From contig NC_014408.1 of NCBI RefSeq assembly GCF_000145295.1, forward strand, positions 660,001 to 692,000: 32,000 nt of DNA, written 5' to 3'. Position 1 is the stretch's first letter. Every line of letters starts with the position of its first letter. The notes beneath the pieces are model-generated. The model ran no database searches, was not told the origin of the DNA, and saw only the letters and a program-made list of their open reading frames with translations. This document shows positions 3,002-25,095 of the stretch, piece by piece. The DNA comes from Methanothermobacter marburgensis str. Marburg. Lineage in GTDB: Archaea; Methanobacteriota; Methanobacteria; Methanobacteriales; Methanothermobacteraceae. A program made the position numbers and the translations under genes.

Positions 3002-3019
3002 CTCATGACCCTCATATTA

Positions 3020-3048: not shown

Positions 3049-3258
3049 TAGTAAACAGTATATGAGCTTTGTGTCCTCACCCTACACAGATGAATCGGAT
3101 CGGGGTTCAGGGATAACTGGACACCTGTAACCGGTAAAATGACTCTTTTTGTTCATTGCCATGATGAATGCAGTCTCAGTGATTCAATAACCACAGTTTT
3201 ATTGTTTTTTCAAAAAATTTTTATGTTTAACCTCCTCAGATAGGTATGAGGTGTTCAG

Positions 3259-7285: not shown

Positions 7286-7298
7286 TCAGATCACCTTT

Positions 7299-7784: not shown

Positions 7785-8023
7785 TTAACCACCTTATAAC
7801 TGAACAGTAATAGTATTGAATCATACAATTTAAATTTTTATATTTTTATTTCATCATTAAAACTTAACATGGCAAATAAAAATCTGTGATTGGAGGACGG
7901 TTATGGTCCTGGAAAGCTGACTTCCCTAAATTGAGGATAATGACTGGTGTGTCAGGAGCATTCTCATTTTTGTTTATAATTCTTAGCTGAAAAAGAGGGA
8001 TCACGTTACTTGGTTTTTCTTTT

Positions 8024-8464: not shown

Positions 8465-8549
8465 CTGTCATCATCTCTAGGTTATATTTATAATATATAC
8501 CTCTAAATATATTATATGCATATATATAATTCAAAGTTAGGAAGGGGTG

Positions 8550-9017: not shown

Positions 9018-9084
9018 AGAATTGAGGATACTTACTTATCTACTCTATTTTGTTTTTAAGGGTTATCTAGTCTAAGTAGTTCAA

Positions 9085-10959
9085 TTATTCCATTTTTAAC
9101 TGTTCTAAAATTCTTTTGGCATTGTTGGCAAGTTCTTTCTGGGAGGAAAGTTTTTCTAATCTCCTTATAAGGTCTTCTCTTTCATTTTTATCTAATTTAT
9201 CTACTCTAACGAAATCCTGCAGGTTGAAACGGGGCGTAGTTCTTTTGATGAATTCCACTAATAAGTGGTCGTCTTTCATCAATTCTCTTATGTAGGGGTC
9301 AACTCCATAGGGCTCTATAACGTTCCATAATTCTATGATATTCCCAAATGTATCAGGATAGAATAAACCGTGCAGGTCTGTCTGAGCTAGCCGGTGCAAT
9401 TTCTCAATTAAAAGATTGATAAGTGATTCCAGTTCTTTTTCCCCCAGAACCTGTAATTTTTCCTCTCCTTGAGTTGCAAAAGTATATAGAGCTAGGTAGA
9501 TACTCTGTCCATTTCTTATAGATTTCTTGATGACTTGGAGTCTCCTATCTGTTTCCATTTTTCTTAATAGTTTGAAGATTATCTCACATGAAAGAGAACA
9601 ACATCCATAGAAATCAGGATGGTTAAACTCTATATCTAAAAGGGTGGCTAGTACGTTTACTATATTTTCAGGGGGGATCTCATCAACATGAATATTTAAA
9701 AATTTCAGGTAGAGGAAATTATCCTTAGAAATGATCTTTTTAAGGGCCTTAGAATCCTCTGTGGCTTTAATTAATTGTCTGATTTGATCTGACGATAAAT
9801 TTAGACTTTCATTTATGGAAAGTTTGAAGTATGTATCAAAATTTTCTACGGTACAAATACGCTTTTCTTTTCTAAGTTCATCGTAAGGCCAAGTAATGTT
9901 ATTTAGAAGAGGAAATAATGATTTCAGTATATTTTTTGCGTTGTTATCCGCCTTTTTATAGATTTCCTTCATCTTTTTAGTAGCTTTTTCATAGAGAGGG
10001 TTAAGAGTACCTAGTGATGGATAACTTGTAAAGGACTCTCTATTTTCATATATTTCCTTGTATAGTTTAGGTTCGAATAATTCGAGGATCGTTATATTGG
10101 CCAGGTCCTCTTTGTTTGTTTCTTCTCCAATGGCGTTGAATTTGAATTTTAGAAGATTCATGTACTTTTTAACATTCCTCATATTTTTAAGGTAGGGTAA
10201 TGTATCCTCAATATTGATGTCCTCTTTAAATAGCTCCTTTAATTCTGATTCTAATATCTCCCTTATCTCTTTGGAACCTAATGGTGGTATTTCAAAGGGA
10301 ACGTGAATTATTTTTTCAAGATATTCCTCGCCGTCACCTTCTTGAACCTTTTCAAGGGCTTTTACAACTGTTTTTTTATCAAATGAACTTATGTATACTG
10401 TGTTTGGTAGATCAACAATTTTAATCATCTGGAAAATTTGACGTATTTCTTCTGCTGTTAATCTATCAATATCATCTATGACTATAACTAGTTTTATGTT
10501 GGCATTTTCTACCGATTTGTCAAGGTCATCTTTGATTTTTTCTAGATTTTCTGGAGAAGATTTAGAAGATTTTATGTTATATTTAATATTAAGGCCTAAT
10601 TGAACGCCTATTTGATCTGGAACTAATTTACTAAGATATTTATCTAATTTTTCTTTGATTTCATTGCCAAGATTATTTCTTAATTCTTCAAAAAAATTTA
10701 AAAGAAGAGCTTCTTGTCCTGAGAACAACCAGGGGTTAAATTTGATTATTTTCAGGTTGGTTTTATTGCTTTCTTCTAAGTGTTCTGTAATCATGTTGAT
10801 GATGGATGTCTTGCCAGATCCCCATTCTCCAATAATGCCTAAAACAAGACATGAACTATCTTCATAGGCCAGTATTGAATCTGAAACATATTTTGCAAAT
10901 TCCCGACGTCCTAGTTTATCTTCGGCACTTGTTTTTATGGGTTCATCTGCATGAAACAT
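9085..10959 (-). CDS. KAP-family P-loop NTPase
   Basis: 624 aa. N-terminal DKLGRREFAKYVSDSI is followed by Walker A GIIGEWGSGKTS and Walker B KLVIVIDDIDRL, then a long helical C-terminal region. This order and spacing are characteristic of KAP NTPases. The gene is very AT-rich. Confidence 0.8.
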   Translation of the reverse strand: MFHADEPIKTSAEDKLGRREFAKYVSDSILAYEDSSCLVLGIIGEWGSGKTSIINMITEHLEESNKTNLKIIKFNPWLFSGQEALLLNFFEELRNNLGNEIKEKLDKYLSKLVPDQIGVQLGLNIKYNIKSSKSSPENLEKIKDDLDKSVENANIKLVIVIDDIDRLTAEEIRQIFQMIKIVDLPNTVYISSFDKKTVVKALEKVQEGDGEEYLEKIIHVPFEIPPLGSKEIREILESELKELFKEDINIEDTLPYLKNMRNVKKYMNLLKFKFNAIGEETNKEDLANITILELFEPKLYKEIYENRESFTSYPSLGTLNPLYEKATKKMKEIYKKADNNAKNILKSLFPLLNNITWPYDELRKEKRICTVENFDTYFKLSINESLNLSSDQIRQLIKATEDSKALKKIISKDNFLYLKFLNIHVDEIPPENIVNVLATLLDIEFNHPDFYGCCSLSCEIIFKLLRKMETDRRLQVIKKSIRNGQSIYLALYTFATQGEEKLQVLGEKELESLINLLIEKLHRLAQTDLHGLFYPDTFGNIIELWNVIEPYGVDPYIRELMKDDHLLVEFIKRTTPRFNLQDFVRVDKLDKNEREDLIRRLEKLSSQKELANNAKRILEQLKME

Positions 10960-11098
10960 GATTACACCATTTAAGTGAATATATAATTATTCATTCAAAC
11001 ACTCAAAATCTTTTACCGCGCGTGGGGTTCTATCATTTAGAGTCAAAAAGAAAATTTTAAATAAAATTTCCTCAAATCCAAGTGTTTATTCTGACCTG

Positions 11099-11176: not shown

Positions 11177-11605
11177 ATGATGGGCATTGACGACCAGAAA
11201 ATTGAAAAACTTGTGGAACTTCTGGAAAAAAGGGATGAGGTCAGCATTGCATACCTCTTTGGCTCCACTGCAAGGGGGGATAAGGGACCCCTCGGGGACT
11301 TTGACATCGGTGTTCTCCTGAAGGAACCCCTGAAGGGATACGATGACCTCAATTTTCAGCTGGAACTCATAGATGAACTTGTATCCGCACTCCGAACAGA
11401 CAGGGTGGACCTTGTCATAATGAACCGGGCGCCGCTTTCCCTGAGTTACAGCATAATCAGGGATGGAATAGTCCTGAAGGACAGTGAGGAAGAGAGGGTG
11501 AGGTTCGAGGGACGTATCATGTCAGAGTACCTTGATAGAAGGTACCATAACGACAGGCACATCAGACTGGCGCTCAGGATGATGGCACGTGAGGGTTTGA
11601 AGTGA
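11177..11605 (+). CDS. mntA: Minimal nucleotidyltransferase (MNT), type VII TA antitoxin-like
   Basis: 142 aa with the GSTARGDKGPLGDFDIGV motif (GSxxRG..DxD) of the NTP_transf_2 family. Its stop overlaps the start of the next gene (GTGA). Confidence 0.85.
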   Translation: MMGIDDQKIEKLVELLEKRDEVSIAYLFGSTARGDKGPLGDFDIGVLLKEPLKGYDDLNFQLELIDELVSALRTDRVDLVIMNRAPLSLSYSIIRDGIVLKDSEEERVRFEGRIMSEYLDRRYHNDRHIRLALRMMAREGLK

Positions 11606-12024
11606 AGGATGAGGTACTATCAAAACTCGAGAAACTCCAGGAGTACCTGAGGATACTCAGGAATTACAGATCACATTCACTTGAGGACCTTAAAAAGGAC
11701 GTCACCCTCAGGGGGGCAGTTGAAAGGTACCTTGAGGTTTCCATAGAGTGCTGTCTGGATATTGGTGAGATGATCATATCATGGGAGAGGGCGAGAAAAC
11801 CTGAGACATACAGGGAAGTCATAGAGATACTTGGAGAAATAGGGGTTCTTCCAGGGGATTTTGCAGATAAATTTGCACCAGCAGCTGGTTTCAGGAACAT
11901 ACTGGTTCATATGTATGCGGAAATAGATGTTGAGAGGGTTTATCTCTACCTTCAACGGGACCTGGAGGATATAGAGAAGTTTGCTGTATTTGTTGCCAGG
12001 TATCTGGAGGAACTGGCTGATTAA
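11602..12024 (+). CDS. hepT: HEPN/DUF86 toxin-like protein (HepT)
   Basis: 140 aa with the R-x4-H-x-Y motif FRNILVHMY near the C-terminus. It overlaps mntA by 4 nt. Confidence 0.85.
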   Translation: MKDEVLSKLEKLQEYLRILRNYRSHSLEDLKKDVTLRGAVERYLEVSIECCLDIGEMIISWERARKPETYREVIEILGEIGVLPGDFADKFAPAAGFRNILVHMYAEIDVERVYLYLQRDLEDIEKFAVFVARYLEELAD

Positions 12025-12169
12025 GATACCCTTATTCGTTATTCCGAGGATCAGTTAACCTTCTCTTCAAAATTATTTGGCCACATTATATTATCTATTT
12101 CCATCATTTAAAACTTTCAGCTTGTTTTTTTGAAAAAACCTTTAACCAGATCAAACCATATTATATATA

Positions 12170-12186
12170 TGCACATTTAATGTGCA
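12170..12186. promoter_or_regulatory. 17-bp perfect palindrome between the TATA box and RBS of adhesin-like gene A
   Basis: TGCACAT-TTA-ATGTGCA lies immediately downstream of ATTATATATA (about 12160-12169) and 20 bp upstream of ATG 12206. It is absent upstream of paralogue B. Confidence 0.45.
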
Positions 12187-12205
12187 GATAGCAGGAGACA
12201 GGTAA

Positions 12206-14041
12206 ATGATAAAACATCTGTATGTAATAGCTGCCATTGCAGCGCTCCTCATTTTATCAGGAACCGCCTCTGCAGCTGACATCTATGTCAACCCCACAGG
12301 GGGGTCCGATGATAATGATGGGCTCTCATGGGCGGCTGCCAAGGCAACCATTGGAAACGCGACCCTCTCCGCGGCCTCAGGTGACAGGATCTGGCTCGCG
12401 GATGGTGAATACAGGGGTGTGCGGAACAGGAACGTAGTGATAGACAGGAACCTCACCATCACCGGCCAGTCAACCACCGGTACAGTGATTGACTGCGAAT
12501 ACCTGGGCAGGGCCTTCAGCGTCCAGCAGGGTGTCAGTTTCACCCTCAGAAACCTCACAGTGAAGAGGGGAAACGAAAACCATGGTGGAGCCATCCTGAA
12601 CCAGGGTAACCTAACTGTCGAGGGATGCAGGTTCCTTGAGAACATGGGATACAGGGGTGGGGCAATTTACAGCCTCGGTAACATCCATATTACCTCAGCA
12701 ACATTCCATGATAACAGTGCTTCTGAGACTGGCGGTGCTCTTCATGTGGCTGGATATCAGCCCTCAGATTCTGCAGTGGTCATAGACTCATCATTCACAT
12801 CAAACGACGCAAAGTATGGTGGGGCAGTTGCAACAGATTACACCCGTCCCATAAATGTTCTACTGAGGGGAAGCACGTTCTCAGGCAACACAGCATGGTA
12901 CGGCGGCGGATTTCTTGCAGACAATGCCAATGCAACCGTTGAGGGATGCACCTTTGAGGAGAACGTGGCATCAGCACACGGCGGCGCAATCAGGAACAAC
13001 TACGGCAACCTCACAGTTAGAAGAAGCACATTCACAGATAACAGTGCTGGCTTTGCAGGTGGAGGTATAAGCAATGTCCGGGCTGCCCTGGCAAATATCA
13101 CAGAGTCCACGTTCACAGGTAACCTTGCAGAGACCTGGAGTCAGGGATCAGCGGTACTCAGCTACTTTACCATTGCGCTGGTCAACTTCTGCCGCATCCT
13201 GAACAACCCCGGCGCCGATGTATTCTGTGAGGACGGCCCACAGGTGGATGCCAGATTCAACTGGTGGGGGTCCAACACACCGGACTTCACTGAACTCACA
13301 GCAGGTGACGTTGCTGCAACGCCATGGATCGTCCTCACACTGGTTGCAAATCCATCAACCGTTACCGTGGGGGGCACCTCCCTCATAAGGGCGGACCTTC
13401 TCCATGACAGTGCAGGCACACTGCATGCAACAAGTGTACCATACACGGGGGTTGTGGGCTTCGAAACAACCTATGGTACAATCACCGATGCTCTGATGAG
13501 CGGTGGGGTTGCATCCTCAACCGTCAGGAACCTCAATGCACCGGGGGTTGCAGTGGTGTCCGCGGTTCTGGATAACCAGGTGGTTAACACCCAGGTAACT
13601 GTTAGGCCAGCTCCACCAGCGGGCATAACCATCAACCAGCTTGTCGCAGCAGCCGTGAACGTCAGGAACCACTACCTGCGCTACCGTAAACTGCCAGCCT
13701 CTGTCACAATTGCATCAAAGAGGTACTCCATGGCCCAGTTCCTGGATTTACTTGCACGTGCAACTGTGCAGCTCAACTCAGGAAACCAGAACCCGTTAAG
13801 ACCACGTGCTGTTGGTTACGCCGGTAGCACTGGCATCTGGAGGTCAGGTAAACTCTCAAGGCCAGCCTACGTGTCAGTGGCAGTCAGTATCAGGAACTTC
13901 ATAAACAGCCAGGGAAGGGCACCCAGGTATGCCTCAACGGTCTATGGCAGGGTGAGCTTTGCGGGCCTCGTGTACAGATACAGTGAGGTACTGAGGTTCT
14001 ACGGTAACAGGGGGAGGCTTCCAAACTACCTGATAATCTAA
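12206..14041 (+). CDS. Secreted parallel beta-helix (PbH1/Pmp-repeat) adhesin-like protein with a pseudomurein-binding-repeat-like C-terminus
   Basis: 611 aa. Signal peptide MIKHLYVIAAIAALLILSGTASA. Repeated GGAI/GGAL/GGGF coils are spaced by about 22-25 aa (NxGGAIxN type). The C-terminal ~130 aa (VNVRNHYLRYRKLPASVTI..YSMAQFLDLL.. and AVSIRNFINSQGRAPRYA..GLVYRYSEVLRFYGNRGRLPNYL) resemble tandem pseudomurein-binding repeats. Confidence 0.75.
   Translation: MIKHLYVIAAIAALLILSGTASAADIYVNPTGGSDDNDGLSWAAAKATIGNATLSAASGDRIWLADGEYRGVRNRNVVIDRNLTITGQSTTGTVIDCEYLGRAFSVQQGVSFTLRNLTVKRGNENHGGAILNQGNLTVEGCRFLENMGYRGGAIYSLGNIHITSATFHDNSASETGGALHVAGYQPSDSAVVIDSSFTSNDAKYGGAVATDYTRPINVLLRGSTFSGNTAWYGGGFLADNANATVEGCTFEENVASAHGGAIRNNYGNLTVRRSTFTDNSAGFAGGGISNVRAALANITESTFTGNLAETWSQGSAVLSYFTIALVNFCRILNNPGADVFCEDGPQVDARFNWWGSNTPDFTELTAGDVAATPWIVLTLVANPSTVTVGGTSLIRADLLHDSAGTLHATSVPYTGVVGFETTYGTITDALMSGGVASSTVRNLNAPGVAVVSAVLDNQVVNTQVTVRPAPPAGITINQLVAAAVNVRNHYLRYRKLPASVTIASKRYSMAQFLDLLARATVQLNSGNQNPLRPRAVGYAGSTGIWRSGKLSRPAYVSVAVSIRNFINSQGRAPRYASTVYGRVSFAGLVYRYSEVLRFYGNRGRLPNYLII
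12272..12500 (+). repeat. High-identity block 1 shared by adhesin genes A and B
   Basis: Manual alignment with 14260-14488 gives 18 mismatches in about 229 nt (about 92% identity). It covers the start of the mature protein. Confidence 0.8.
12945..13415 (+). repeat. High-identity block 2 shared by adhesin genes A and B
   Basis: It aligns colinearly with about 15170-15640 (offset 2225), from GCACnTTTGAGGAGAACGTGGCATCAGCACACGG through CATGACAGTGC. Most positions are identical by eye. Confidence 0.75.
13661..14041 (+). repeat. High-identity block 3 (cell-wall-binding C-terminus) shared by A and B
   Basis: It aligns with 16435-16815 (offset 2774), from AGGAACCACTA to the stop codon. Most positions are identical by eye. 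Confidence 0.75.
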
Positions 14042-14052
14042 AACCCAACCCC

Positions 14053-14071
14053 TTATTTTTTTACTTTTTTT
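14053..14071 (+). terminator. Oligo-T archaeal terminator after adhesin gene A
   Basis: Two T7 runs at 14056-14062 and 14065-14071 start 15 nt after the stop codon. Confidence 0.5.
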
Positions 14072-14190
14072 GAATCTCCGTAGAGTTCTAACCTTATTTT
14101 CGGTATCACTTAAACATGAACTCCTATTTCATGGGAGTTCAGTGAAAATTTTTTATCCTATAATCATTATATATACTCAAGGGGGTTTAC

Positions 14191-16815
14191 ATGATAAAGA
14201 TAATTACATGGCTCTTTCTGTTTCTTGTGGGGATAATGCTTATCCCGGGATGTGTCAGTGCAGCCGATATCTATGTCAACGCCACGGGGGGGTCCGATGA
14301 TAATGATGGATTCTCATGGGCGGCTGCCAAGGCAACCATTGGAAACGCGACCCTCTCTGCGGCTTCAGGTGACAGGATCTGGCTTGCGGATGGTGAATAC
14401 AGGGGTGTTGGTAACAGGGACGTGCTGATAGACAGGAACCTCACCATCACCGGACAGTCAACCACCGGTACGGTGATTGACTGTGAAGCAATGGGCAGGG
14501 CCTTCAATGTGTCCTCGGGGGCGGTCCTGGTCCTCAGGAACCTCACGCTGAGAAATGGCAGTGCACCTGAGGGTGGGGCGGTGATGAACCACGGTGAACT
14601 CCAGGTGGAGAACTGCATCCTCACCTGCAACACCGCAGCCGGGGGTGGCGCCATCTACAGTGACGGTACAGTGAAACTGACTGAAAGCCACCTCATGGAG
14701 AACAGCGCAGAGGATGGTGGTGCAGTATACAGTAAGGGGGTCCTTGAGGTTACAGAATCAACCTTCAACGGGAATGAGGCCTCAGGGTGCGGGGGGTCCA
14801 TATACAGCGCCCCATACTCATCCCTTAACATCAGGGACTCATCATTTGCACTTGGCCATGCAGGGACTGGTGGCGCGATTTACACTGGAGGAGATACAAC
14901 CATATGCGACTCCACCATTGCAATGAACACCGCAGACAGCCATGGTGGCGGGTTATATGTGTGGGCAGCAGACGGTACGGAAATCACGGTTACTGTGACC
15001 AACTCCATGTTTCTCTACAACAATGCAAGCTATGGTGGGGGAATCTCAGGATTCAGAAACCCTGACGATTCATCACTGAATTTACAGGTTTCAGACTCAC
15101 TCTTCAGGTCAAACCTTGCAGATTACGGTGCCGGTATCCATGCAGAAAATGTTAACACCACAGTATCAGGGTGCACATTTGAGGAGAACGTGGCATCAGC
15201 ACACGGCGGAGGAATCAGGAACAACTACGGCAACCTCACCGTTAGCAGAAGCACATTCACAGATAACAGGGCAGCATACGCTGGTGGCGGTGTAAGTTCT
15301 TTCCTCGCGGTGCTTGCAAATATCACAGAGTCCACGTTCACAGGTAACACTGCAGAGTCATGGGGGCAGGGATCAGCGGTCCTCAGCTACTTCACCATTG
15401 CACTGGTCAACTTCTGCCGCATCCTGAACAACCCTGGCGCCGATGTGTTCTGTGAGGACGGCCCGCAGGTGGATGCCAGGTTCAACTGGTGGGGCTGTAA
15501 CACACCGGACTTCACTGAACTCACAGCAGGTGATGTTGCTGCAGCACCATGGATGGTCCTCACATTAACCGCAAATCCAGCGGCTGTTGCTGCAGGGGGC
15601 ACCTCAGTCATAACAGCCGACCTGAGGCATGACAGTGCCGGGGGATACCATGACACATTCTTCGTCCCCTACACAGGTAATGTGGACTTCTCGGCCACCG
15701 CAGGGAGCATCGATGATGCTGTGATGTCCCATGGAACTGCATCCTCAACACTCACAGGTCTGGCAGCACCGGGTACAGTGACAGTGACCGGGGCCCTTGA
15801 CGCTGAAAGCGCCTCAGTGGATGTGAATGTCCTCAAGGTTCCATCATCCATCACAGTGGAAGACACTGAAACTGTTGAGGGCGACGCATTCAATTTAAGG
15901 GCACGTTTAATGGCACAGAACCCCATCCCAGGTAAGGTCATCATTTTCAGAATAAATGGAGTTCACATGGGAGGTTCAACCACCGGTTCAGATGGATGGG
16001 CAACCCTCAACCTTCCAGGTATATTCCCGCCGGGTATCTACAATGTGACTGCAGAGTTCCAGGGTGATGAACTCCTCAATAACAGTTCATGCCGGGCAGA
16101 CCTCAGGATCCTCAGGAAGGCGGCATTTGAACTCTCAAACCTCACCGTAGTTCCACTCTCAGGGGCAGCCCCCCTCAGGATCAGTGTCTCTGCCAGGGTC
16201 AGGAATACCGGTGAGGCCCCGGGCGAGTACCGTGCAGAGCTCCTTGTGAATTCGGTGCCTGTCGCATCAATGGTGATTTCACTTGCCGCTGGCGAATCAG
16301 GGGATTTGAGGTTCAACCACACCATCACCAGGGATGGTGTGTACCTGGTGACAGTGGGGGGCCTTCCTGCAAGGACGGTTACGGTTAAATCCCAGGGTTT
16401 AACTGTTAAACAGATTGCAGCTGCCGCTCTGAGTGTGAGGAACCACTATGCACGCTACCGTAAACTGCCAGCATCTGTAACAGTGGCCGGTAAGGCTTAC
16501 AGCATGGCCCAGTTCCTGGATTTACTTACACGCGCCACGGCACAGCTCAACTCAGGAAACCAGAATCCACTGAAACCACGCGCTGTTGGTTACCTTGGTA
16601 GCACAGGCACATGGAGGTCAGGTAAACTCTCAAGGTCAGCCTACGTGTCAGTGGCAGTCAGTATCAGGAACTTCATAAACAGCCAGGGAAGGGCACCCAG
16701 GTATGCCTCAACATCCTACGGACAGGTGAGCTTTGTTGGCCTTGTGTACGTATACAGCAGGGTACTGGCGTTCTACGGTGCAAATGGCAGGTTACCGGGT
16801 GATATAACAATTTAA
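14191..16815 (+). CDS. Secreted beta-helix adhesin-like protein, a longer paralogue with extra coils plus Ig-like and CARDB-like inserts and a pseudomurein-binding-like C-terminus
   Basis: 874 aa. Signal peptide MIKIITWLFLFLVGIMLIPGCVSA. It has more GGA[IV]Y coils than A. Residues about 550-740 (nt about 15838-16410) add an Ig-like module (SITVEDTETVEGDAFNLRA..GIYNVTAEFQGD) and a CARDB-like module (LRISVSARVRNTGEAPGEYRAELLVN..GESGDLRFNHTI..GVYLVTVGG). AGGGGG RBS lies upstream. Confidence 0.75.
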   Translation: MIKIITWLFLFLVGIMLIPGCVSAADIYVNATGGSDDNDGFSWAAAKATIGNATLSAASGDRIWLADGEYRGVGNRDVLIDRNLTITGQSTTGTVIDCEAMGRAFNVSSGAVLVLRNLTLRNGSAPEGGAVMNHGELQVENCILTCNTAAGGGAIYSDGTVKLTESHLMENSAEDGGAVYSKGVLEVTESTFNGNEASGCGGSIYSAPYSSLNIRDSSFALGHAGTGGAIYTGGDTTICDSTIAMNTADSHGGGLYVWAADGTEITVTVTNSMFLYNNASYGGGISGFRNPDDSSLNLQVSDSLFRSNLADYGAGIHAENVNTTVSGCTFEENVASAHGGGIRNNYGNLTVSRSTFTDNRAAYAGGGVSSFLAVLANITESTFTGNTAESWGQGSAVLSYFTIALVNFCRILNNPGADVFCEDGPQVDARFNWWGCNTPDFTELTAGDVAAAPWMVLTLTANPAAVAAGGTSVITADLRHDSAGGYHDTFFVPYTGNVDFSATAGSIDDAVMSHGTASSTLTGLAAPGTVTVTGALDAESASVDVNVLKVPSSITVEDTETVEGDAFNLRARLMAQNPIPGKVIIFRINGVHMGGSTTGSDGWATLNLPGIFPPGIYNVTAEFQGDELLNNSSCRADLRILRKAAFELSNLTVVPLSGAAPLRISVSARVRNTGEAPGEYRAELLVNSVPVASMVISLAAGESGDLRFNHTITRDGVYLVTVGGLPARTVTVKSQGLTVKQIAAAALSVRNHYARYRKLPASVTVAGKAYSMAQFLDLLTRATAQLNSGNQNPLKPRAVGYLGSTGTWRSGKLSRSAYVSVAVSIRNFINSQGRAPRYASTSYGQVSFVGLVYVYSRVLAFYGANGRLPGDITI

Positions 16816-16853: not shown

Positions 16854-17294
16854 TCATTTATTCTCAAGGGTCTCAAGGGTTTTCCTGATCTTTTCGGTGA
16901 ATTCATGAAAATCCCTGAGGTGTTCCCTGAGGATCCTGAATGTTATACGGTCATCTATCTTACCATACCTGTGGACCACGATGTTTCTGAATCCCCTCAT
17001 TGCCTTTACTTTCCTGAAGGTTTCCTCGTCTATTATTCCGGCTCCCAGAAGGTTCTCAAGCACATCACCATCTGATCCAGGGACACCGAGTTTCAGGTCG
17101 GAGTTGAGGATGGAACATATGTCAAAGACATTTTCAACAGCAAACTCAAGCCTCCTGTACATCCCATCCCTTACAAGGCCAAGACCCCGGAACTCCTCAA
17201 AGGTTTCAGGAAGGTTATCATCTATAAGATTTACGCTTTCCTCAATCTCACTTATCTTCGTGAGTATGATGGACTTTCTTATCATGATATTCAC
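16854..17294 (-). CDS. hepT: HEPN/DUF86 toxin-like protein (second HepT)
   Basis: 146 aa with the R-x4-H-x-Y motif FRNIVVHRY. It overlaps the upstream MNT gene by 4 nt. It is strongly diverged from the HepT at 11602-12024. Confidence 0.85.
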   Translation of the reverse strand: MNIMIRKSIILTKISEIEESVNLIDDNLPETFEEFRGLGLVRDGMYRRLEFAVENVFDICSILNSDLKLGVPGSDGDVLENLLGAGIIDEETFRKVKAMRGFRNIVVHRYGKIDDRITFRILREHLRDFHEFTEKIRKTLETLENK

Positions 17295-17680
17295 CTCATG
17301 GGGGCCATGCCGATGTAATCATAGAAGCGGTGTTTGAAGTCATCGAATTCCTTCACTGTCTCCCATGCAATGTCATGGAGGAATCTTTCACTGTCACAGT
17401 ATATGACCTCACCCCTGAGTACCTGGACCCTCACATAGAGTGGGAGCTGCTGGAATATCTGGACATCGAATATTTCATCCACCTCACAGAGGACCCTCAG
17501 CCTGAAATCCGCTGCCTCATCAGGGGTTCCATCATAGTACACTGCAAGGTCTATATCAGACCACCCCTCCCCCCTGAGGGCTGAACCATAGAGTATTATG
17601 AACCTGACCCTCTCAGCGTCCTTGAAACTCCTTATCACACTGAGGAGCTCATCAATGCGGGTTCTGATAGATTCTTCCAT
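17291..17680 (-). CDS. mntA: Minimal nucleotidyltransferase (second MntA-like antitoxin)
   Basis: It has the GSALRGEGWSDIDLAV motif. I prefer ATG 17680 (MEESIRTRIDELL..) over the tracked start 17794. A TATA-like TTTAAGATATAT lies about 20-30 nt upstream on the minus strand, and the extra 38 aa have no family-like features. Confidence 0.8.
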   Translation of the reverse strand: MEESIRTRIDELLSVIRSFKDAERVRFIILYGSALRGEGWSDIDLAVYYDGTPDEAADFRLRVLCEVDEIFDVQIFQQLPLYVRVQVLRGEVIYCDSERFLHDIAWETVKEFDDFKHRFYDYIGMAPMR

Positions 17681-17995
17681 GTGGTTACTATGATCATCAT
17701 ATATCTTAAATTGCTGGTCATGTACTTTCACAGCCAGATAATGATGCTGCTGATTGAAATGATCAGATCCATGTTCAGAGGGCCAGTGAGGCAAAGTGGG
17801 AACTCAAATCTACAATCCCTGAATATCGGTGAGGCTGTCGTGGCTGGACTCATGGTACCGGTCCCTGCTATGGTGAAGATAGGTGAATTCAAAAGGCAGG
17901 TTGTCTGGTGGAGACCCGGACGTGGAGTCCATCTGGCGTGGGATGAAGGGTAAAGGATAAGTATCATCAGGGTCAAGAGAATTACAGTGGTTTCC

Positions 17996-18421
17996 ATGAC
18001 AGAGGCAGATTTTAAGGATTTCTATGATGTGCTGGTTGAGAACCTTGAGTCCTTCAACGGGGAATATGCATCCTTCATAGACCATGGCCCGAAACTCTTC
18101 AAGCTCCTCGCGGACTTTCTGGGCTATGAGCACCTCAAGAGCCAGCTCAAACTCAAAATAAGCGCGGCAATAGCCTACTATGTTGTACCCATGGATGTCA
18201 TCCCCGAGACGGTCTACGGTGCCTACGGGTACATTGACGACATATTCATAACAGCCTACGTCATAAGGATCCTGGCGGACGTCTATGGCTACGAGTTCCT
18301 CTCAGAGTACTGGGAGGGAGAGGAAGACCTTGAGGAGGTTGTTGAACTCTGCTATGAGAGGTCAAAGGAGGTCCTCAGGGAGAAGACAACCGATGTGCTG
18401 GAATATGTGGGTTTGATCTGA
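17996..18421 (+). CDS. DUF1232 (YkvA-like) family protein
   Basis: It has the AIAYYVVPMDVIPETVYGAYGYIDD motif (Y..P.D.IP......G..DD). ATG 17996 lies inside the tracked GTG 17987 ORF. Confidence 0.65.
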   Translation: MTEADFKDFYDVLVENLESFNGEYASFIDHGPKLFKLLADFLGYEHLKSQLKLKISAAIAYYVVPMDVIPETVYGAYGYIDDIFITAYVIRILADVYGYEFLSEYWEGEEDLEEVVELCYERSKEVLREKTTDVLEYVGLI

Positions 18422-20506
18422 TCAGCTGTTTTTCCGGACTCTGTTCTCCCAGTTCATGGCCTCAAGAACCCCAAGGATGTCATCAAGTGATTCCTTCTCC
18501 ACAGTCAGTTCAATGAGTAGTTCAAAGCACTCATCATTCCTCAGGATCATGCACTTCTTCATTGATGGTAGGAGGTCCCCCAGTTCATTCATGGTATCCA
18601 TGAGACCGTTACCACTCACAAGTCCGTTCATCATGAGGTTGAGGCTTTCACCGGTGGGGTTTATGTAGATTATCTCCTTTCTGTGGGCAGTGTCCTCTGA
18701 GGGGACAGGTTCTGCTGTTATTTCTTGTTCTATTCCTGTAACCGGGGTTTCTTCTGGCTTCACAGTCAGTGTGTCCAGGGTTTCTTCAGCATCTGATCCA
18801 TGGTACTGGAGGTAGATCTCCTCAATTTCAGGGTTGTGTTTAAGAAGGAATCCTTCGGGGCCCTCCTCAATGAGGTCATGCTCCTGGAGGGTCCAGATCC
18901 CGGCATCCAGGGTCCCGGGTTCATCAAAGTGTTCAGCCAGTTCCTCCCTTCTGAAGGGCCCTTCACCCACGACCTCCCTGATGTTCCTGAATATGTCCCA
19001 AGCCAGTATCCGGTCATAGCATTCCCGGCACTCATCCCGTTTTCCGTCGATTGTACTGTAGAAGCTGGATTTCTTGAGTTTCCTGCCGCAGATGGGGCAG
19101 GTTCTGATCATGTCTGATTCTGTAACAAGTTCCCCTTCACCATAGGCTTCATGGAAGGCTCTGAGTTCCTCGTCCGGTTTAAGGGTGTAGGTTTCGAAGG
19201 CCGGGTTGCTCTCGATGAGGTCAAAGTCCTGCAGCAGCCAGATATGGCCAGTGATGATAAACCTCTCATCCTCATTTTCTATGATGTCGTCAACAGCAAA
19301 TTCAACCCCTGGTTCAACAAGCTTTCTTATCTCAGCGAGGGCATCTGCAGCGCAGCGCCTCCTTGAGCATTCCCTGCACATGGGGGAGGTTCCATCGGAT
19401 GAATTGAATTCTGTGGCGGGTTTCACCTCCCTGCACACTGAGCACTCCAGTTCACCCTCCTCAGAGGAGGCGGTGCTTTCGGTGCGGGATGGCTCCTCAA
19501 GTTCTGATCTGAGCCCTTTAAGCTCCACATTCTCTATGATGAACTTCTGGACCTCCCCTTCGGGTTTTAACCTGCAGGTACCTGATTCCCCGTCCTGCTC
19601 AAGGAGGTTGAACTCTTCGAGTATCCAGATCATGGCTGTGAATTCTGTTCTCTCCACGTCATCCATCCCGGCTGTGTAAACGTCAACTTTAATCTCATCA
19701 CCGGCTTCAAAAATTGTGAGGATTCTTTCAAGGGATTCAAGGGCATAGAGTCTCCTTGAACATTCCCTGCAGATCCCCTGGGACATCTCAGTTTCGGTTT
19801 CAAGCTCTTTCTGGCAGCCAGAACAGAGTTCAAGGCCACTGACGGGTACTTTAGGTAATAAATCTTTTCGCTGATGGGATTCTGCCGCTGGAGCTTCTTT
19901 AGCTATTGTCTGATCCGTTTCCTCTGCTTTGGTGTGGTGCACGGGTTCATTCTCCAGTATCGCCCCTGTTTTCAGGGCGTTCGGGTCACCATCAGGTCCG
20001 GCTTCCTGGGTCCGGAGGTCATCATTCAGTTTTTCAGGGTGAGGTTCATCCCCGGGTGAATCATAAGGTTCATTCATGAATTCTTCAGGTCTTACTGCGG
20101 CCCTGAGAAGTGATTCGGCTGCAGATTTGAAGCCCAGGTTGAGTTCCATGAAGTCATCGCATTTTTCAGATAACACGTAAAGGGTTCTGAAGCTATTGAG
20201 TCCCTGATTCTTTATGAACCCGTTCCCTCCACCGCTGACATGCTTCTTTATGAAGCCCTCCCTTAGGAGAATCCAGAAGAGCAGGGAGCCGAGTTCCTCC
20301 TCATCCTTAAAGTCATCGAAGTTGAAGGGTTCCATTCCCTGAAGTGTTTCAATGGCCTTTAAAATTCGATATTTATCGTAGCATTCCCTGCAGACGCCCA
20401 GGTTCTCAGCGCCGCAGTTTTCACAGGATGAAGAAGATGATTTACTGCCGCAGGATAGGCATAAAAGTTTATCTGATTCTCTACAGCAGAGGACGCAGTT
20501 ATTCAT
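18422..20506 (-). CDS. Large protein with four zinc-ribbon + winged-helix-like repeat modules, an acidic linker and a distinct C-terminal domain
   Basis: Four modules follow the pattern CxxC-x(7-19)-CREC[YS][DR][KR]..-x(~35-45)-[IF]WxL[LEQ][ERD][FHG][NDF]L[LI]E. In 700-aa ORF numbering they start at C34, C234, C361 and C476. The real start is probably ATG 20506, since GAGGGGAG lies 9 nt upstream and the tracked start 20524 is a TTG. Confidence 0.6.
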   Translation of the reverse strand: MNNCVLCCRESDKLLCLSCGSKSSSSSCENCGAENLGVCRECYDKYRILKAIETLQGMEPFNFDDFKDEEELGSLLFWILLREGFIKKHVSGGGNGFIKNQGLNSFRTLYVLSEKCDDFMELNLGFKSAAESLLRAAVRPEEFMNEPYDSPGDEPHPEKLNDDLRTQEAGPDGDPNALKTGAILENEPVHHTKAEETDQTIAKEAPAAESHQRKDLLPKVPVSGLELCSGCQKELETETEMSQGICRECSRRLYALESLERILTIFEAGDEIKVDVYTAGMDDVERTEFTAMIWILEEFNLLEQDGESGTCRLKPEGEVQKFIIENVELKGLRSELEEPSRTESTASSEEGELECSVCREVKPATEFNSSDGTSPMCRECSRRRCAADALAEIRKLVEPGVEFAVDDIIENEDERFIITGHIWLLQDFDLIESNPAFETYTLKPDEELRAFHEAYGEGELVTESDMIRTCPICGRKLKKSSFYSTIDGKRDECRECYDRILAWDIFRNIREVVGEGPFRREELAEHFDEPGTLDAGIWTLQEHDLIEEGPEGFLLKHNPEIEEIYLQYHGSDAEETLDTLTVKPEETPVTGIEQEITAEPVPSEDTAHRKEIIYINPTGESLNLMMNGLVSGNGLMDTMNELGDLLPSMKKCMILRNDECFELLIELTVEKESLDDILGVLEAMNWENRVRKNS

Positions 20507-20746
20507 ATGGCATACTCCCCTCAATACAGTATAATTTAATGTTTTTACAGCTACTTAAATCATTAACATTTACAGGGTTATAAAAAAATTTATCTATCAA
20601 TTTTTAGAAACATTTAAATGACTTTAATGCCATAAAAAGGGGGTTTTTACATAATAAAACAGAAAAGGCTGGTCCCCAGGGGTAAGTCCAGATACTGGCT
20701 TCACAGAATAGATGATGATGTCCTTGAAGATATATCAAAGAACCTC

Positions 20747-21421
20747 GTGATTGGCTCCATGAGGAAGAGGGGTAAACTTATAAATGAAATCCGATCAGGT
20801 GACAGGATATTCCTCTTCAAGCCCATCCCCCTCAATGGCCGGAGGACACTCTCATTTGTTGCATACACCATGGTTGAAAGTGTGTACAGTGACCCTGAAA
20901 CCCTCTATGATTACTATGAATCCCCCCGGAAGCTGAAGCTCAAGGGTATAAAGTTCTTCAACCCACCCATACCATTAGTTAAATTCAAGGATAAACTTGT
21001 TTCCTTTGATTCTAAAAAATGGTCATCAGCAACGAAATCTGAGTACAGAAAGATAGATGAGGCTGACTTCAGGACCATAAGGTCCAGGGCAAAGTTCATA
21101 GAGAAATTCCCCGCCTACCTTGAGGAGGTATCCTTCAGCATGGATGAATTCATTCTGAACTCCATCATGGGCCTCCACAGCATGCTCAGAAAGGCCGATG
21201 GCCGGAAGCAGATGGAGATAAAATCCTTCATAAAACTCCTTGATGAATTCATCCAGTCCTACGGGATTAACAAATCATATGATGAACTCGAGGAATTCTA
21301 CTCAATCAACGCCTGGAGGACCGGTATAAAACACTACCCTTCACGGGATCCTGAGAGGATAGTAACACTCTACAACAGCAGAGGGGCTGGAAGAGACTTT
21401 GGATTGATATCCCTGGAATAG
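20747..21421 (+). CDS. EVE/PUA-like domain protein with a helical C-terminal half; the 5' end is uncertain (first gene of the triad)
   Basis: The pattern ..IRSGDRIFLFKP....RTLSFVAYTMVESVYSD......SPRKLKLKGIKFFNPPIPLVKFKDKL..F.SKKW.....EYRKIDEADF matches archaeal EVE/PUA-like domains. The expected first strand (RYWLHRI, 20690-20710) is encoded in frame upstream of the first canonical start codon (see findings). Confidence 0.55.
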   Translation: MIGSMRKRGKLINEIRSGDRIFLFKPIPLNGRRTLSFVAYTMVESVYSDPETLYDYYESPRKLKLKGIKFFNPPIPLVKFKDKLVSFDSKKWSSATKSEYRKIDEADFRTIRSRAKFIEKFPAYLEEVSFSMDEFILNSIMGLHSMLRKADGRKQMEIKSFIKLLDEFIQSYGINKSYDELEEFYSINAWRTGIKHYPSRDPERIVTLYNSRGAGRDFGLISLE

Positions 21422-21431
21422 GAGGCTTAAT

Positions 21432-22673
21432 ATGAATGCAGAGAGTATCATAAATGCCCTTAAAAATGGTAACGTCCCCCCGGAGGGGGTGGGAGAGATA
21501 TGCGTTGGGCGTGAGAGGGAACTGGAGGAGTTCGACAAGATATTCGGTAAGGTTAAGGATGGGGCCGCGGTAACAAGGTTCCTCAACGGTGAATTCGGGT
21601 CGGGAAAGTCCTTCTTCCTGAAACTCCTGGAGGAAAGGGCCCTTGCAGATAACTTCGTCGTCGCCAAGGTGACACTCAGCAGGGACGTCCCCTTCAACAA
21701 GTTCGAGGTCGTCTACAGGAGCATCGTTGCCTCGCTCCGCTGCAAGACAGGCACATCCCTTGAGCACATAATTGAAAAGTGGACCACACAGCTCCGCATG
21801 ATGGCCCTAAGGGAAACCACGGACCCCTACCAGCAGGAGAGGATAGTGATAGACAACATAAACAATGACCTCAAGGAGGTCCGTAAACACGCCACAACCT
21901 TCGCTGCTGCAATAGAGAACTACTACAAGCTCTCTGCACGGGGTGACCAGGAGACAGCAAAGTATGCAATGGCCTGGCTCAGCGGTGAGAAGAACATACC
22001 ATTCACCATAAAGAGGCAGTTCGGTGTCAAGGGTGACATTGACCGGGAAAACGCCTTCAAGTACCTTGAGGCCCTCTCCTCATTCCTCAGGGCACTCAAC
22101 TATTCAGGGCTCATAATACTCATAGACGAGGCAGAGCACATAATGACCCTCCACACAAAGAAGCTGAGGGACACAGCCTACGACTACATGAGGTTCATAT
22201 ACGATGAGTGCAGCCTCGGCAGATTCCACAACACCCTCTTCATATTCGCAGGGACCCCCGAGTTCTTTGAGGACCCCAAGATGGGCGTGCCCTCCTACAC
22301 AGCACTGAATGAGAGGATAGAGGACGTCCTCAACACGGAATTCAAGGACCTCAGGAAACCCATAATAAGGCTTGACGGCTTCAAGAAGGACAACCTCATG
22401 GAGCTGTCAGATCGCCTCATAGGTATGCACGAGGAGGTCTATGAATGGGAGGCAAAACCTGTCAGGGAGTCCCTTGATGGTATAATAGCAAGGCATGAGG
22501 CCAACGCGGAACTCACAGGTTACATTTCACCGAGAAACTTTGTTAAATCATTCATAAGTGTCCTTGATGTTGTCCAGCAGAACCCTGAACTCCGAAGCGA
22601 GGAGGAGATCCTTGACCTCTTCGAGGAGAAGGAGATGGAGTTTGAGGAGTTCGAGGACGAGGACTGGGTTTAG
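21432..22673 (+). CDS. BrxD-like (DUF2791-type) P-loop ATPase
   Basis: 413 aa. It has N-terminal L..G.VPPEGV..I.VGRERELEEF, Walker A NGEFGSGKSFF, Walker B GLIILIDEAEH and FIFAGTPEFFEDP, then an acidic tail. GGAGG RBS (21421-21425) overlaps the upstream stop. Confidence 0.65.
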   Translation: MNAESIINALKNGNVPPEGVGEICVGRERELEEFDKIFGKVKDGAAVTRFLNGEFGSGKSFFLKLLEERALADNFVVAKVTLSRDVPFNKFEVVYRSIVASLRCKTGTSLEHIIEKWTTQLRMMALRETTDPYQQERIVIDNINNDLKEVRKHATTFAAAIENYYKLSARGDQETAKYAMAWLSGEKNIPFTIKRQFGVKGDIDRENAFKYLEALSSFLRALNYSGLIILIDEAEHIMTLHTKKLRDTAYDYMRFIYDECSLGRFHNTLFIFAGTPEFFEDPKMGVPSYTALNERIEDVLNTEFKDLRKPIIRLDGFKKDNLMELSDRLIGMHEEVYEWEAKPVRESLDGIIARHEANAELTGYISPRNFVKSFISVLDVVQQNPELRSEEEILDLFEEKEMEFEEFEDEDWV

Positions 22674-22688
22674 TCAGGGTGTAATCTG

Positions 22689-24821
22689 ATGTCCTCCGAA
22701 TCACTCAACCCCCGCCTCAGGCACTTCCTCGCCAACAGGCTGGGATGGAGGAGCCTGAGGGAGGTGCAGAAATCCGCCATTGAAGCCATAGGGAGGGGGG
22801 AGGACACCCTCATAGTTGCACCCACAGCCTCTGGTAAGACCGAGGCAGCCATGATACCTGTCTTCAACTCCATACTCACAGAGGGCCTCCCACCTGTCAG
22901 TCTGCTCTATGTCTCACCCCTCAAGGCACTCATAAATGACATGCACAGCAGACTGGAGTACTGGGGCAACCACTTCAACCTTGAGGTCATGAAGTGGCAC
23001 GGGGATGTCCCGCCAGACACCAAGCGGAGGTTCATCAGGAACCCCGCGGACATCCTCCTAATAACACCAGAGTCCCTTGAGGTCATCATGGTGAACAGGA
23101 GCCGGGATGAGAGGGAGAGGATCTTCAGAAACCTCCGCTACATCATAGTGGATGAGATCCACTACTTCATAGAGTCAGACAGGGGTGTCCAGCTGAACTC
23201 CCTCCTTGCAAGGCTTGAGAGGTACACCGCTGTGAGGCCCCAGAGGATAGGGCTCTCTGCGACGGTTGGAAACCCCGAAGACGTCCTTGAGTGGATGAGC
23301 CCCTCGGGGGTTGTTGTAAAGGAGAGCTCTGATAGGAGACTCCAGTACAGGATATTCTCTGGTGGAGAAGCGGGGGTCATTGATGTTTTAAGGAGGTTAA
23401 CCGGCAGGAAGGTCCTCATCTTCGTCCCATCAAGGAGGGAGGCCGAGAGGTACTACAACATCATAAGAAGGTGCCTGGATGTGGACGTCTTCATACACCA
23501 CTCCTCCCTGAACAGGGAGTCACGGGAGGAGGCAGAGGAGAAATTCAAATCCATCTCAGCGGCCTTCATGGTGAGCACCAGTACACTGGAGCTTGGTATA
23601 GATGTGGGTGACATCGACGTGGTGGTACACCTGCGGAGTCCAACAACCGTGAACCAGTTCCTCCAGAGGACAGGGAGGAGCGGCAGGAGGAGCGGCAACC
23701 AGAGGACCATCATATTCCATGAGGGTGAGGTGCTCCTCGCCCTCTCGGTTGTCTCACTGGCACTTTCAGGTAAACTTGAAATGCTCAGGATACCCAGAAG
23801 GCCCCTTGACATATACTTCCACCAGATCCTGAGTTCGGTGTTTGAGATTGAAAAACCGGGGCCCGCCGAGATATACAGGGGCCTGGGGAGGGCCCATGTA
23901 TTCTCTGATATAAATCAAGGGGACTTCAGGCACCTCCTTGAATTCATGGGTGAGAGTGATTTTATAAGGAAGCACGGGACCTACCTCTACCATGGCTTCA
24001 ACTTTGAGAAGGTCTTCGGTAAGATGAACTTCCTGGAGTTCTACTCTGTTTTCTACCCCACCTATGAGTTCACTGTTAAGCACGGCACAAAGACAATAGG
24101 AACCCTTGACGCATTCTTCGCTGTAACATACCTTGAGGAGGGGAGGGGCTTCGTGCTTGGTGGTGAAAACTGGATTGTGAGGGAGATAGACCATGAAAAA
24201 TTCATAGTTAAGGTTAAGCCCTGCTCACGGAAGGCCAGTATTCCTGACTGGAGTGGTGGCGGTGCCCCTGTGAGCTTTGAGGTTGCAAGGCACGCCTATG
24301 ACATCCTCCTTGGAAAATTCAACCGGGACCTCCTCAAGTGGCTAGATGACGCATCAAGGGAGAGGGTCCTATCTGAGATGGCAAGGGCCTCTGCCGCAGG
24401 TTTAACCAGGGATGTTATCCCTGTGAGTGTCGGGTCGGATGTGGAGATCCACACCTTTGGAGGGGAGAGGGTTAACGGCCTCATCTCTGATATATTCAGG
24501 ATGGAGCATGATGCATACCGTGTCAGGGATGATGCCTTCGCGGCGCGCTTCAGCGCAAAGGTAGACTACGATGACGTGGTATCTACTCTGAATGAGATCC
24601 CATCCATCATCTCTGAGGAGGACTTCCCCCTCAGGCTCCATGACAGGCTTGACAGGATGGTTAAGAACAAGTTCATAGAGCACCTCCCGGAGGATGTGGC
24701 GGCCCATATAAAGTACAGCCTCCTCTACAGGCCGGATGAGCTCATGGGGCTGCTTGAGGCCAGCAGACCTGTTGAGGTGGAGGGTTTCAGGATTCAGGTT
24801 TTTCATGGTTCTAAGAAATAG
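22689..24821 (+). CDS. Lhr-like / BrxHI-like SF2 DEAD/DEAH-box helicase
   Basis: 710 aa. Motif I is VAPTASGKTEAA, II is IIVDEIHYF, III is GLSATVGN, V is STSTLELGIDVG and VI is QRTGRSGRR. A ~360-aa C-terminal extension with WH-like LDIYFHQILS and IPDWSGGGAPVSFEV resembles the Lhr DEAD-associated region. It starts 15 nt after the upstream stop. Confidence 0.8.
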   Translation: MSSESLNPRLRHFLANRLGWRSLREVQKSAIEAIGRGEDTLIVAPTASGKTEAAMIPVFNSILTEGLPPVSLLYVSPLKALINDMHSRLEYWGNHFNLEVMKWHGDVPPDTKRRFIRNPADILLITPESLEVIMVNRSRDERERIFRNLRYIIVDEIHYFIESDRGVQLNSLLARLERYTAVRPQRIGLSATVGNPEDVLEWMSPSGVVVKESSDRRLQYRIFSGGEAGVIDVLRRLTGRKVLIFVPSRREAERYYNIIRRCLDVDVFIHHSSLNRESREEAEEKFKSISAAFMVSTSTLELGIDVGDIDVVVHLRSPTTVNQFLQRTGRSGRRSGNQRTIIFHEGEVLLALSVVSLALSGKLEMLRIPRRPLDIYFHQILSSVFEIEKPGPAEIYRGLGRAHVFSDINQGDFRHLLEFMGESDFIRKHGTYLYHGFNFEKVFGKMNFLEFYSVFYPTYEFTVKHGTKTIGTLDAFFAVTYLEEGRGFVLGGENWIVREIDHEKFIVKVKPCSRKASIPDWSGGGAPVSFEVARHAYDILLGKFNRDLLKWLDDASRERVLSEMARASAAGLTRDVIPVSVGSDVEIHTFGGERVNGLISDIFRMEHDAYRVRDDAFAARFSAKVDYDDVVSTLNEIPSIISEEDFPLRLHDRLDRMVKNKFIEHLPEDVAAHIKYSLLYRPDELMGLLEASRPVEVEGFRIQVFHGSKK

Positions 24822-24855: not shown

Positions 24856-25095
24856 TTAGCTTCTTATGATAAAATGTTCCTCTTTTTCAGGTACAGTGTA
24901 ACTGCTTATAAGGTCCTGATACATTTCAAGAACATCCTCGTCGCTAAGGAAGAGTTCAAGCGCCTCCCGGATGTTCTCAAGAGCAATTTCTTTGCTTATA
25001 CCCTGACTGGCTATGTTAAAGGGCTCACATATCGCCACGAACAGGTTTCCCTCTTTTTCAATCTTTACTGGAAGCTCAAGTTTAACTGAGGCCAT
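24856..25095 (-). CDS. HicB-like (UPF0150) antitoxin-fold protein, orphan
   Basis: 79 aa. The segment VKIEKEGNLFVAICEPFNIASQGISKEIALENIREALELFL fits the HicB N-terminal RNase-H-like fold pattern. No HicA-like ORF is adjacent. Confidence 0.55.
   Translation of the reverse strand: MASVKLELPVKIEKEGNLFVAICEPFNIASQGISKEIALENIREALELFLSDEDVLEMYQDLISSYTVPEKEEHFIIRS

Follow-up and report, generated by a model that had tools for sequence, protein, structure and literature searches.

The question considered here is what is done together by three genes, designated genes 1, 2, and 3, that are co-oriented on the + strand of Methanothermobacter marburgensis str. Marburg and are separated by only 10 and 15 nucleotides (nt). 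They encode a protein with an EVE/PUA-like domain, an ATPase of the BrxD type, and a helicase of the BrxHI type, and are located in a stretch of 32,000 nt (contig NC_014408.1, positions 660,001 to 692,000) that is termed the window; all positions given below are those of the window. A preliminary description, made from the letters alone, had seen in them a stand-alone three-gene operon. Its account of the orientation and gaps is accurate, but the unit is larger than it proposed, since the module, which is confined to Methanobacteriales, has four to five genes, not three: a gene for a Cys-rich protein is an equally conserved partner, and a gene for a DUF1232 protein is a frequent one. The whole is probably an undescribed archaeal defense module. 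Its features, with lengths in amino acids (aa) and including the open reading frame (ORF) originally listed for gene 1, are as follows.

17987..18421, + strand: DUF1232 protein, 144 aa (Pfam DUF1232, 1.8e-09)
18422..20524, - strand: Cys-rich protein, 700 aa from TTG 20524, or 694 aa from an ATG 18 nt downstream (public record)
20525..20650: divergent intergenic region, 126 nt, with TTTAAAT at 20613-20619 and the Shine-Dalgarno (SD) sequence GGGGG at 20639-20643
20651..21421, + strand: gene 1, proposed extent, most likely from ATA 20651 (or 20654); the listed ORF is 20747..21421, from GTG
~20690-21103, + strand: gene 1, EVE/PUA-like domain
~21116-21418, + strand: gene 1, orphan C-terminal domain, predicted winged-helix topology
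21432..22673, + strand: gene 2, BrxD/SngB-type DUF2791 P-loop ATPase, 413 aa
21588-21611 and 22110-22139: gene 2, Walker A and Walker B
22689..24821, + strand: gene 3, BrxHI/SngC-type Lhr-like superfamily 2 (SF2) helicase, 710 aa
22818-22841 and 23151-23162: gene 3, motif I and DEIH

The motifs of the two larger proteins are all present where the preliminary description had placed them, GEFGSGKS (residue 53) and LIILIDEAEH (residue 227) in gene 2 and APTASGKT (44), DEIH (155), SAT (190), and QRTGRSGR (326) in gene 3, and each gene has a putative ribosome-binding sequence of its own, an SD-like AGGAGG 6 nt upstream of the ATG of gene 2 and AGGGTG 7 nt upstream of that of gene 3. The BrxD-like character of gene 2 is borne out by its match to Pfam BrxC_BrxD (DUF2791; 2.7e-104, whole model covered) and by the PADLOC models BrxD (6.6e-82) and SngB (5.3e-73, nearly the full model); its public name is DUF2791 / BREX system ATP-binding domain protein. 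Gene 3 likewise matches PADLOC BrxHI at 7.6e-163 (residues 4-674, model positions 6-673 of 698) and SngC at 7.1e-133 (nearly the full model), together with Pfam DEAD (4.8e-39), Helicase_C (1.2e-21), and a short WH_Lhr segment (9e-08). The public records ADL58345, ADL58346, and ADL58343 are identical to gene 2, gene 3, and the Cys-rich protein, respectively. Gene 3 shares the SF2 core and the Lhr-type winged helix with the housekeeping helicases aLhr1 and aLhr2, but it differs from them in the absence of Lhr Domain 4 (PF08494), which has no Pfam match in gene 3. Its scores are also far under all NCBIfam Lhr and Hel308 cutoffs (for the Lhr type, 259 bits versus a cutoff of 849). By sequence, gene 3 therefore fits the "Lhr-like" group that Hajj et al. 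(PMC8301817) set apart from housekeeping aLhr1 and aLhr2.

According to a 2026 survey (PMC12839542), BrxD, a standalone AAA+ ATPase of the ORC/Cdc6 type, and BrxHI, a Ski2/Lhr-like helicase, form a closely linked dyad in which the former possibly loads the latter. The pair in the window resembles that of BREX (bacteriophage exclusion) types 2 and 6 (Pgl) in that BrxD and BrxHI give the best PADLOC scores of genes 2 and 3 and in being tightly adjacent, as in that survey and in the bacterial loci L023 and L024. It differs in that PglX, PglZ, BrxC/PglY, and PglW are absent from the window and from the called genes and ORF clusters of the related loci, and in that gene 2 is under the NCBIfam BREX_BrxD equivalog cutoff (271 versus 350 bits). 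An identity as part of BREX was rejected because the core proteins are absent. The BrxD and BrxHI scores, being slightly above those of SngB and SngC, could nonetheless reflect an orphaned remnant of type 2 or 6 BREX that has lost its core genes and is functionless on its own. We consider this extremely improbable: no PglX, PglZ, PglY, or PglW is found in the window or in the called-gene and cluster maps of the related loci, partners of its own are conserved with the block in four genera, its clade is ~28-34% identical to the BREX-linked copies, and type 2 BREX was not found in archaea among the 1309 taxa surveyed (PMC12839542).

Outside the module, the pair is not known except from antiviral systems of bacteria. 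The bacterial plasmid relatives of the gene 2 ATPase that were inspected are 28-31% identical to it and stand in several contexts: Shango (TerB, ATPase, helicase) in L020 and L021, BREX-2/BREX-6 in L023 and L024, and, in L022 (Deinococcus), an ATPase-helicase pair behind two unrelated hypothetical genes. Shango, which Millman and Johnson reportedly described in 2022, is said to consist of a TerB protein (SngA), a DUF2791 ATPase (SngB), and a DEAD/DEAH helicase (SngC). The likeness to the module of the window is in the order of partner, ATPase, and helicase, the same layout as in L020 and L021, in the match of genes 2 and 3 to the SngB and SngC models and their adjacency across a 15-nt gap, and in the fact that neither encodes an obvious nuclease. 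The differences are that the first gene here encodes an EVE plus winged-helix-like protein, not TerB, that a Cys-rich zinc-ribbon/winged-helix protein and a DUF1232 protein are added, and that the clade of the module is archaeal and has 29-30% identity to the Shango proteins. No TerB, TerB_N, or TerB_C domain was found in gene 1, the Cys-rich protein, the DUF1232 protein, or the other window ORFs scanned, in a search for which SngA of L020 was the positive control (TerB_N, 1.3e-27), and an identity as true Shango was rejected because the module has no TerB domain. The statement that an EVE-like protein takes the place of TerB/SngA, with no PglX, PglZ, PglW, or TerB domain among the window ORFs scanned, thus stands. 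In small neighbor-joining trees the Methanobacteriales ATPases and helicases each form a clade of their own, about equidistant from both bacterial groups, so that from their sequences the archaeal pair looks like a third, separate lineage; the varied bacterial contexts, together with this separate clade, suggest that the pair is a portable engine whose first gene can be exchanged.

The listed 224-aa ORF of gene 1 has no Pfam or PADLOC family match. When the in-frame upstream residues are added, and only then, it matches NCBIfam PRK00809, an archaeal EVE-type hypothetical protein, at 3.1e-09 (model positions 2-145 of 146), which is below the cutoff of that model. In the AlphaFold2 model of gene 1 (mean predicted local distance difference test score, pLDDT, 87.4), the closest PDB structures found by Foldseek are 2p5d (MJECL36; E 4.7e-9, TM-score TMt 0.77) and 2hd9 (PH1033; 2.9e-7, TMt 0.77-0.78), after which EVE, DUF55, and YTH structures are ranked, and a 95%-identical orthologue carries the NCBI name EVE domain-containing protein. 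The modeling therefore supports a PUA-like/EVE fold for the N-terminal part of gene 1, a predicted reader of modified bases, as the preliminary description had suggested. The fold is that of standalone archaeal EVE proteins (PH1033, MJECL36, and the PRK00809/COG1673 type), but gene 1 differs from them in going undetected by the Pfam EVE model and in carrying an additional, orphan C-terminal domain. This domain had been taken to be helical, but in the AlphaFold2 model it is alpha/beta with winged-helix topology: its 105 residues modeled alone (pLDDT 88.6) are arranged as a1-b1-a2-a3-b2-b3. Only weak Foldseek matches (E >= 0.15) are obtained with it, mostly to winged-helix-type domains and including ORC1/Cdc6, replication terminator protein, PadR, TubR, and Cdt1, and nothing significant was returned by Pfam, PADLOC, or a PDB sequence-profile search. 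From its model, the domain is best termed winged-helix-like, though it is otherwise an orphan.

Among 1.84 billion representative proteins searched by profile, 57 are relatives of gene 1 at E <= 1e-10, most of which span both domains and many of which are fragments; the weak tail of the search contains standalone EVE-like proteins of ~140 aa. As a separate observation, the homologues P0016, P0017, P0018, P0021, and P0022 are tandem duplications of 395-634 aa with two units, each an EVE plus C-terminal domain, the first of which lacks the final KHxPSRDP...YISLE segment.

The start of gene 1 requires separate consideration. Between the stop codon at 20633-20635 and the first EVE beta-strand (RYWLH) there are zero in-frame ATG, GTG, or TTG codons, and the ORF that begins at GTG 20747 leaves out beta-strand 1 and helix 1. 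The boundaries given in the preliminary description (20575 or 20747) should accordingly be revised: the SD sequence GGGGG stands 7 nt ahead of ATA 20651, and from the sequences the start is most likely this codon or the adjacent ATA 20654. A non-canonical start appears to be habitual in the family. In the related loci (numbered with the prefix L), an SD run (GGGGG, GGAGG, or GGCGGG) is followed, after a spacer of 3-10 nt (typically 5-8), by a codon that is ATA, ATT, or ATC in the great majority and ATG in L008, L010, and L012; the next codon is A-rich and, in most loci, is followed by CAA or CAG, and many loci lack any canonical start ahead of the first EVE beta-strand. CTG 20669, the annotated start in the orthologue of sp. 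K4, was rejected as a conserved start, as many loci have CTA or TTA in its place. Because of the non-canonical start, gene callers give truncated gene 1 products of 183-237 aa, and the protein collection lacks an exact copy of the 224-aa ORF. It should be noted that the lack of a canonical start, together with the absence of this ORF from a collection that does include genes 2 and 3 and the Cys-rich protein, could also be read to mean that gene 1 has lost its start codon and is dead in this genome, leaving only the ATPase-helicase pair functional. This is very unlikely, because the combination of SD and ATA, ATT, or ATC recurs so widely and the reading frame is open and conserved through the N terminus in all of the related loci. 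Translation from ATA, which would be expected to give a low level of gene 1 protein, would, if verified, provide an unusual archaeal example of conserved initiation at a non-canonical codon, and such a start may explain why an association of EVE with DUF2791 is missing from EVE surveys. Further upstream in the 126-nt intergenic region, direct reading of the sequence locates the TATA-like, A/T-rich TTTAAAT; a scan for sigma-70 promoters and terminators gave chance-level results, and the sigma-70 model is not applicable to archaea.

Beyond this intergenic region, and transcribed divergently from gene 1, is the gene for the Cys-rich protein, a member of a previously unannotated family; for the protein of the window, no family was matched in Pfam or PADLOC. 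An N-terminal Cys cluster is followed in it by four units, each composed of a CxxC...CxxC zinc ribbon and a winged-helix-like segment with the motif IWxLQExDLIE (IWTLQEFDLI), and repeats are detectable at the DNA level within the gene at 18866, 19211, and 19598. When the unit is aligned across genera, four Cys are invariant and a Trp is near-invariant. A C-terminal domain of ~85 aa, predicted to be beta-beta-alpha-beta-beta-alpha, is conserved in the window and in L001-3, L009, L011, L013, L014, L016, and L017. The homologues vary from 600 to >1600 aa and in unit number, with AP2-like and short helical repeats added, and have weak Pfam matches to zinc ribbons (Stc1, DZR) and to AP2 (9e-07 in L011); a PDB profile search with the unit gave LIM/zinc-finger noise and one weak match to a winged-helix regulator. 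Members of the family are exemplified by the following.

18422-20524, - strand: window
50-3937: L013
4301-8233: L009
10653-15269: L019

Wherever the flanking sequence is long enough, the triad is accompanied by a linked Cys-rich homologue. In L019 (M. woesei) it is located 3' of the helicase on the same strand, which indicates that the linkage has survived rearrangement. The protein diverges rapidly, being 55% identical between two Methanothermobacter species, versus 89% for the gene 2 ATPase. The DUF1232 gene converges on the Cys-rich gene and abuts its stop codon, and it adjoins the Cys-rich gene in Methanothermobacter (L014-L016), Methanobacterium (L001-L003), and L017/18; it was undetected in the Methanobrevibacter-type loci. 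Its product, which has weak hydrophobic segments, is probably an accessory partner of the module. A fusion of DUF1232 with Schlafen AlbA_2 adjoins the module in Methanobacterium ferruginis (L001:5352-6605, - strand), a hint that DUF1232 belongs to conflict systems.

The linkage of the triad is strict. Twelve loci, all from Methanobacteriales (Methanobacterium, Methanobrevibacter, Methanovirga, and unclassified), came from a scan of GTDB species representatives; the scan was limited by the two patterns used and returned zero Methanothermobacter loci even though the window sequence fits both patterns. With a metagenome contig and six further loci (L014-L019), these belong to a set of related loci of which 20 were fetched, some of them duplicates. 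In all of them, across four genera, gene 1 is followed by the ATPase and the helicase, as the proposal of a co-conserved unit had implied. Since gene 1 is only 36-45% identical between genera, retention of this order in every locus fetched is far beyond chance. Two of the loci, L017 and L018, were retrieved via an ATPase (P0259) from a metagenome-assembled genome that is labeled Spirochaetales bacterium by NCBI; they contain a complete five-gene block of the Methanobacteriales type, with ATPase and DUF1232 identities of 57-64%, and the label reflects either a binning error or a recent transfer.

The surroundings of the block share nothing between genera, and in several lineages they contain genes related to defense. 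L001 has an LmuB-like ATPase; L004 has NERD+UvrD, whose cluster-C4 homologues are in L003, L005, and L006; L014 has HerA/NurA; L017/18 has type III restriction-modification, phospholipase D-like (PLD), and superfamily 1 (SF1) helicase genes, with an N6/N4 methyltransferase downstream; and the window itself has a PifA-like KAP NTPase and two MNT/HepT pairs. Some copies appear to be damaged. In M. ferruginis L001 both the Cys-rich gene and the helicase appear fragmented (7240-9835 and 11993-14201), and the Cys-rich gene of M. wolfeii is split in one assembly (L015:8054-9522) and intact (474 aa) in another; this could represent pseudogenization or assembly error. An Rfam scan of the window, including the intergenic region, gave no match, no tRNAs were found in it, and no terminal repeats were found flanking the block, so that there is no sign of a discrete mobile element. 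Overall, the block behaves like an accessory module passed on stably within a single genus.

From the homologies and the neighborhoods, we lean toward a role of the module in defense. The fuller proposal, of a DNA modification-dependent system directed against viruses or plasmids, with the ATPase-helicase pair in Shango order and TerB replaced by the EVE protein, appears to us about evenly balanced between right and wrong. In such a system, the EVE domain of gene 1 would recognize a modified base on incoming DNA, and the winged-helix-like domain of gene 1, together with the multi-repeat zinc-ribbon protein, would hold the complex on the DNA. An oligomer of the ORC/Cdc6-like ATPase would then load or activate the 3'-5' helicase on that DNA, where unwinding may block replication of the invader or expose its DNA to host nucleases. 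The ATA, ATT, or ATC start might serve to keep the gene 1 sensor scarce relative to the ATG-initiated ATPase and helicase.

Several observations weigh against a defense function of this kind. No effector (nuclease, toxin, or membrane pore) and no methyltransferase were identified in the module, so that the preliminary reading as a defense module is sustained by homology and neighborhood but not by an effector. Pfam EVE (PF01878) gives no match to gene 1 with its extended N terminus even at E <= 10, none of the winged-helix matches of its C-terminal domain is significant, and no relative of gene 1 was found in the viral contigs searched. We know of no established mechanism for Shango. The neighbors of the block in L013 and L010 are purely housekeeping genes, and in Methanothermobacter the block (DUF1232, Cys-rich gene, genes 1-3, and MarR-MatE further on) is syntenic, with insertions around it, and gene 2 is 77-90% identical across the species; this fixed position and this level of identity fit a vertically inherited cellular function.

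The last of these points, the strong conservation of gene 2 and the synteny of the block, lead to the main alternative, in which the genes constitute a lineage-specific module that serves to repair DNA or restart replication; the EVE domain would act as reader of a base that is damaged or unusual, and the ATPase as loader of the Lhr-like helicase at the lesion or stalled fork. Lhr-family helicases do act in repair, including Lhr of M. thermautotrophicus (PMC7437997, PMC8301817), HerA/NurA adjoins the block in L014, and the module includes no toxin, nuclease, or methyltransferase. However, it is proteins of defense systems, not housekeeping Lhr, that genes 2 and 3 match best, and gene 3 lacks Domain 4. 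The position of the block, which the preliminary description had treated as potentially diagnostic of a housekeeping role, is fixed within Methanothermobacter, in partial agreement with such a role at the level of the genus, but its flanks are unrelated between genera; outside Methanothermobacter the block was found in only 12 GTDB representative species by the pattern-limited scan, some genomes contain apparent pseudogenes, and defense genes adjoin it in at least five lineages. We therefore regard a repair function as unlikely.

The modification-dependent defense proposal also has to be weighed against an opposite use of the same parts. By analogy with BREX, the EVE domain could read a "self" mark that is placed on host DNA by a methyltransferase encoded elsewhere and restrain the helicase, so that unmodified incoming DNA is attacked. 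The ATPase-helicase pair is accessory to the methylation-based BREX types 2 and 6, standalone EVE proteins of archaea are neighbors of methyltransferase-containing restriction-modification systems (Bell, Wolf and Koonin 2020; PMC7641849), and an N6/N4 methyltransferase is present downstream in L017/18, but no methyltransferase is linked to the other loci, and in characterized restriction contexts EVE domains are targeting modules for modified foreign DNA (PMC7641849). This version is quite unlikely in our view. The same survey describes archaeal EVE proteins beside systems of an ORC/Cdc6-like ATPase and a helicase (the DUF499 system); gene 1 differs from the EVE proteins of such guided restriction systems in that its partners are a DUF2791 ATPase and an Lhr-like helicase, not DUF499, a methyltransferase, or an SWI2/SNF2 helicase-nuclease. 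DUF2791, Lhr, and BrxD are not mentioned in that EVE survey (PMC7641849), nor are Shango or an EVE-DUF2791-Lhr combination in the BREX survey (PMC12839542), and no paper describing the combination of EVE, DUF2791, and an Lhr-like helicase was found in the searchable literature, in agreement with the earlier impression that it is undescribed.

If the modification-dependent defense proposal is extended to its most specific form, the module would provide a nuclease-free immunity that is restricted to archaea, in which gene 1, as a scarce sensor translated from a non-AUG start, and the Cys-rich protein, as a DNA-binding scaffold, direct the loader and helicase onto modified viral DNA and act by forced unwinding or replication interference. 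This form is a tentative possibility, on the doubtful side, but if true it would offer a first way into the mechanism of the BrxD-BrxHI/Shango pair. The pair (BrxD-BrxHI, or SngB-SngC) is found widely among BREX type 2 and 6 and Shango systems, and here it is joined to a domain whose class of ligand, modified bases, is predictable and to a large array of putative DNA-binding units; this suggests the testable idea that the pair is a generic engine for loading a helicase on marked DNA, with swappable sensors. The module would also add a methanogen-specific defense system to an antiviral repertoire that is poorly charted in methanogens. M. marburgensis has a known virus, psiM2. Genetic tools exist for M. 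thermautotrophicus (PMC8609365).

The remainder of the window contains other genes of interest. The orphan HicB-like gene proposed in the preliminary description (24856-25095, - strand, 79 aa) has no Pfam or PADLOC match, whereas the two pairs of MNT/HEPN genes and the KAP NTPase that it reported in the neighborhood are present. The latter is a 624-aa KAP-family protein (PADLOC PifA, 9.6e-66; QatA weaker) in a low-GC islet at 8000-11000 (0.32-0.37, versus ~0.49 elsewhere) that was probably acquired horizontally, and two adjacent paralogous ORFs of 175 and 161 aa without family assignment are located at 6758-7285 and 7299-7784 on the - strand. The MNT/HepT (nucleotidyltransferase/HEPN) toxin-antitoxin pairs, at 11177-12024 and 16854-17794, bracket the genes for two large surface proteins (12206-14041 and 14191-16815) with pseudomurein-binding repeats and beta-helix.

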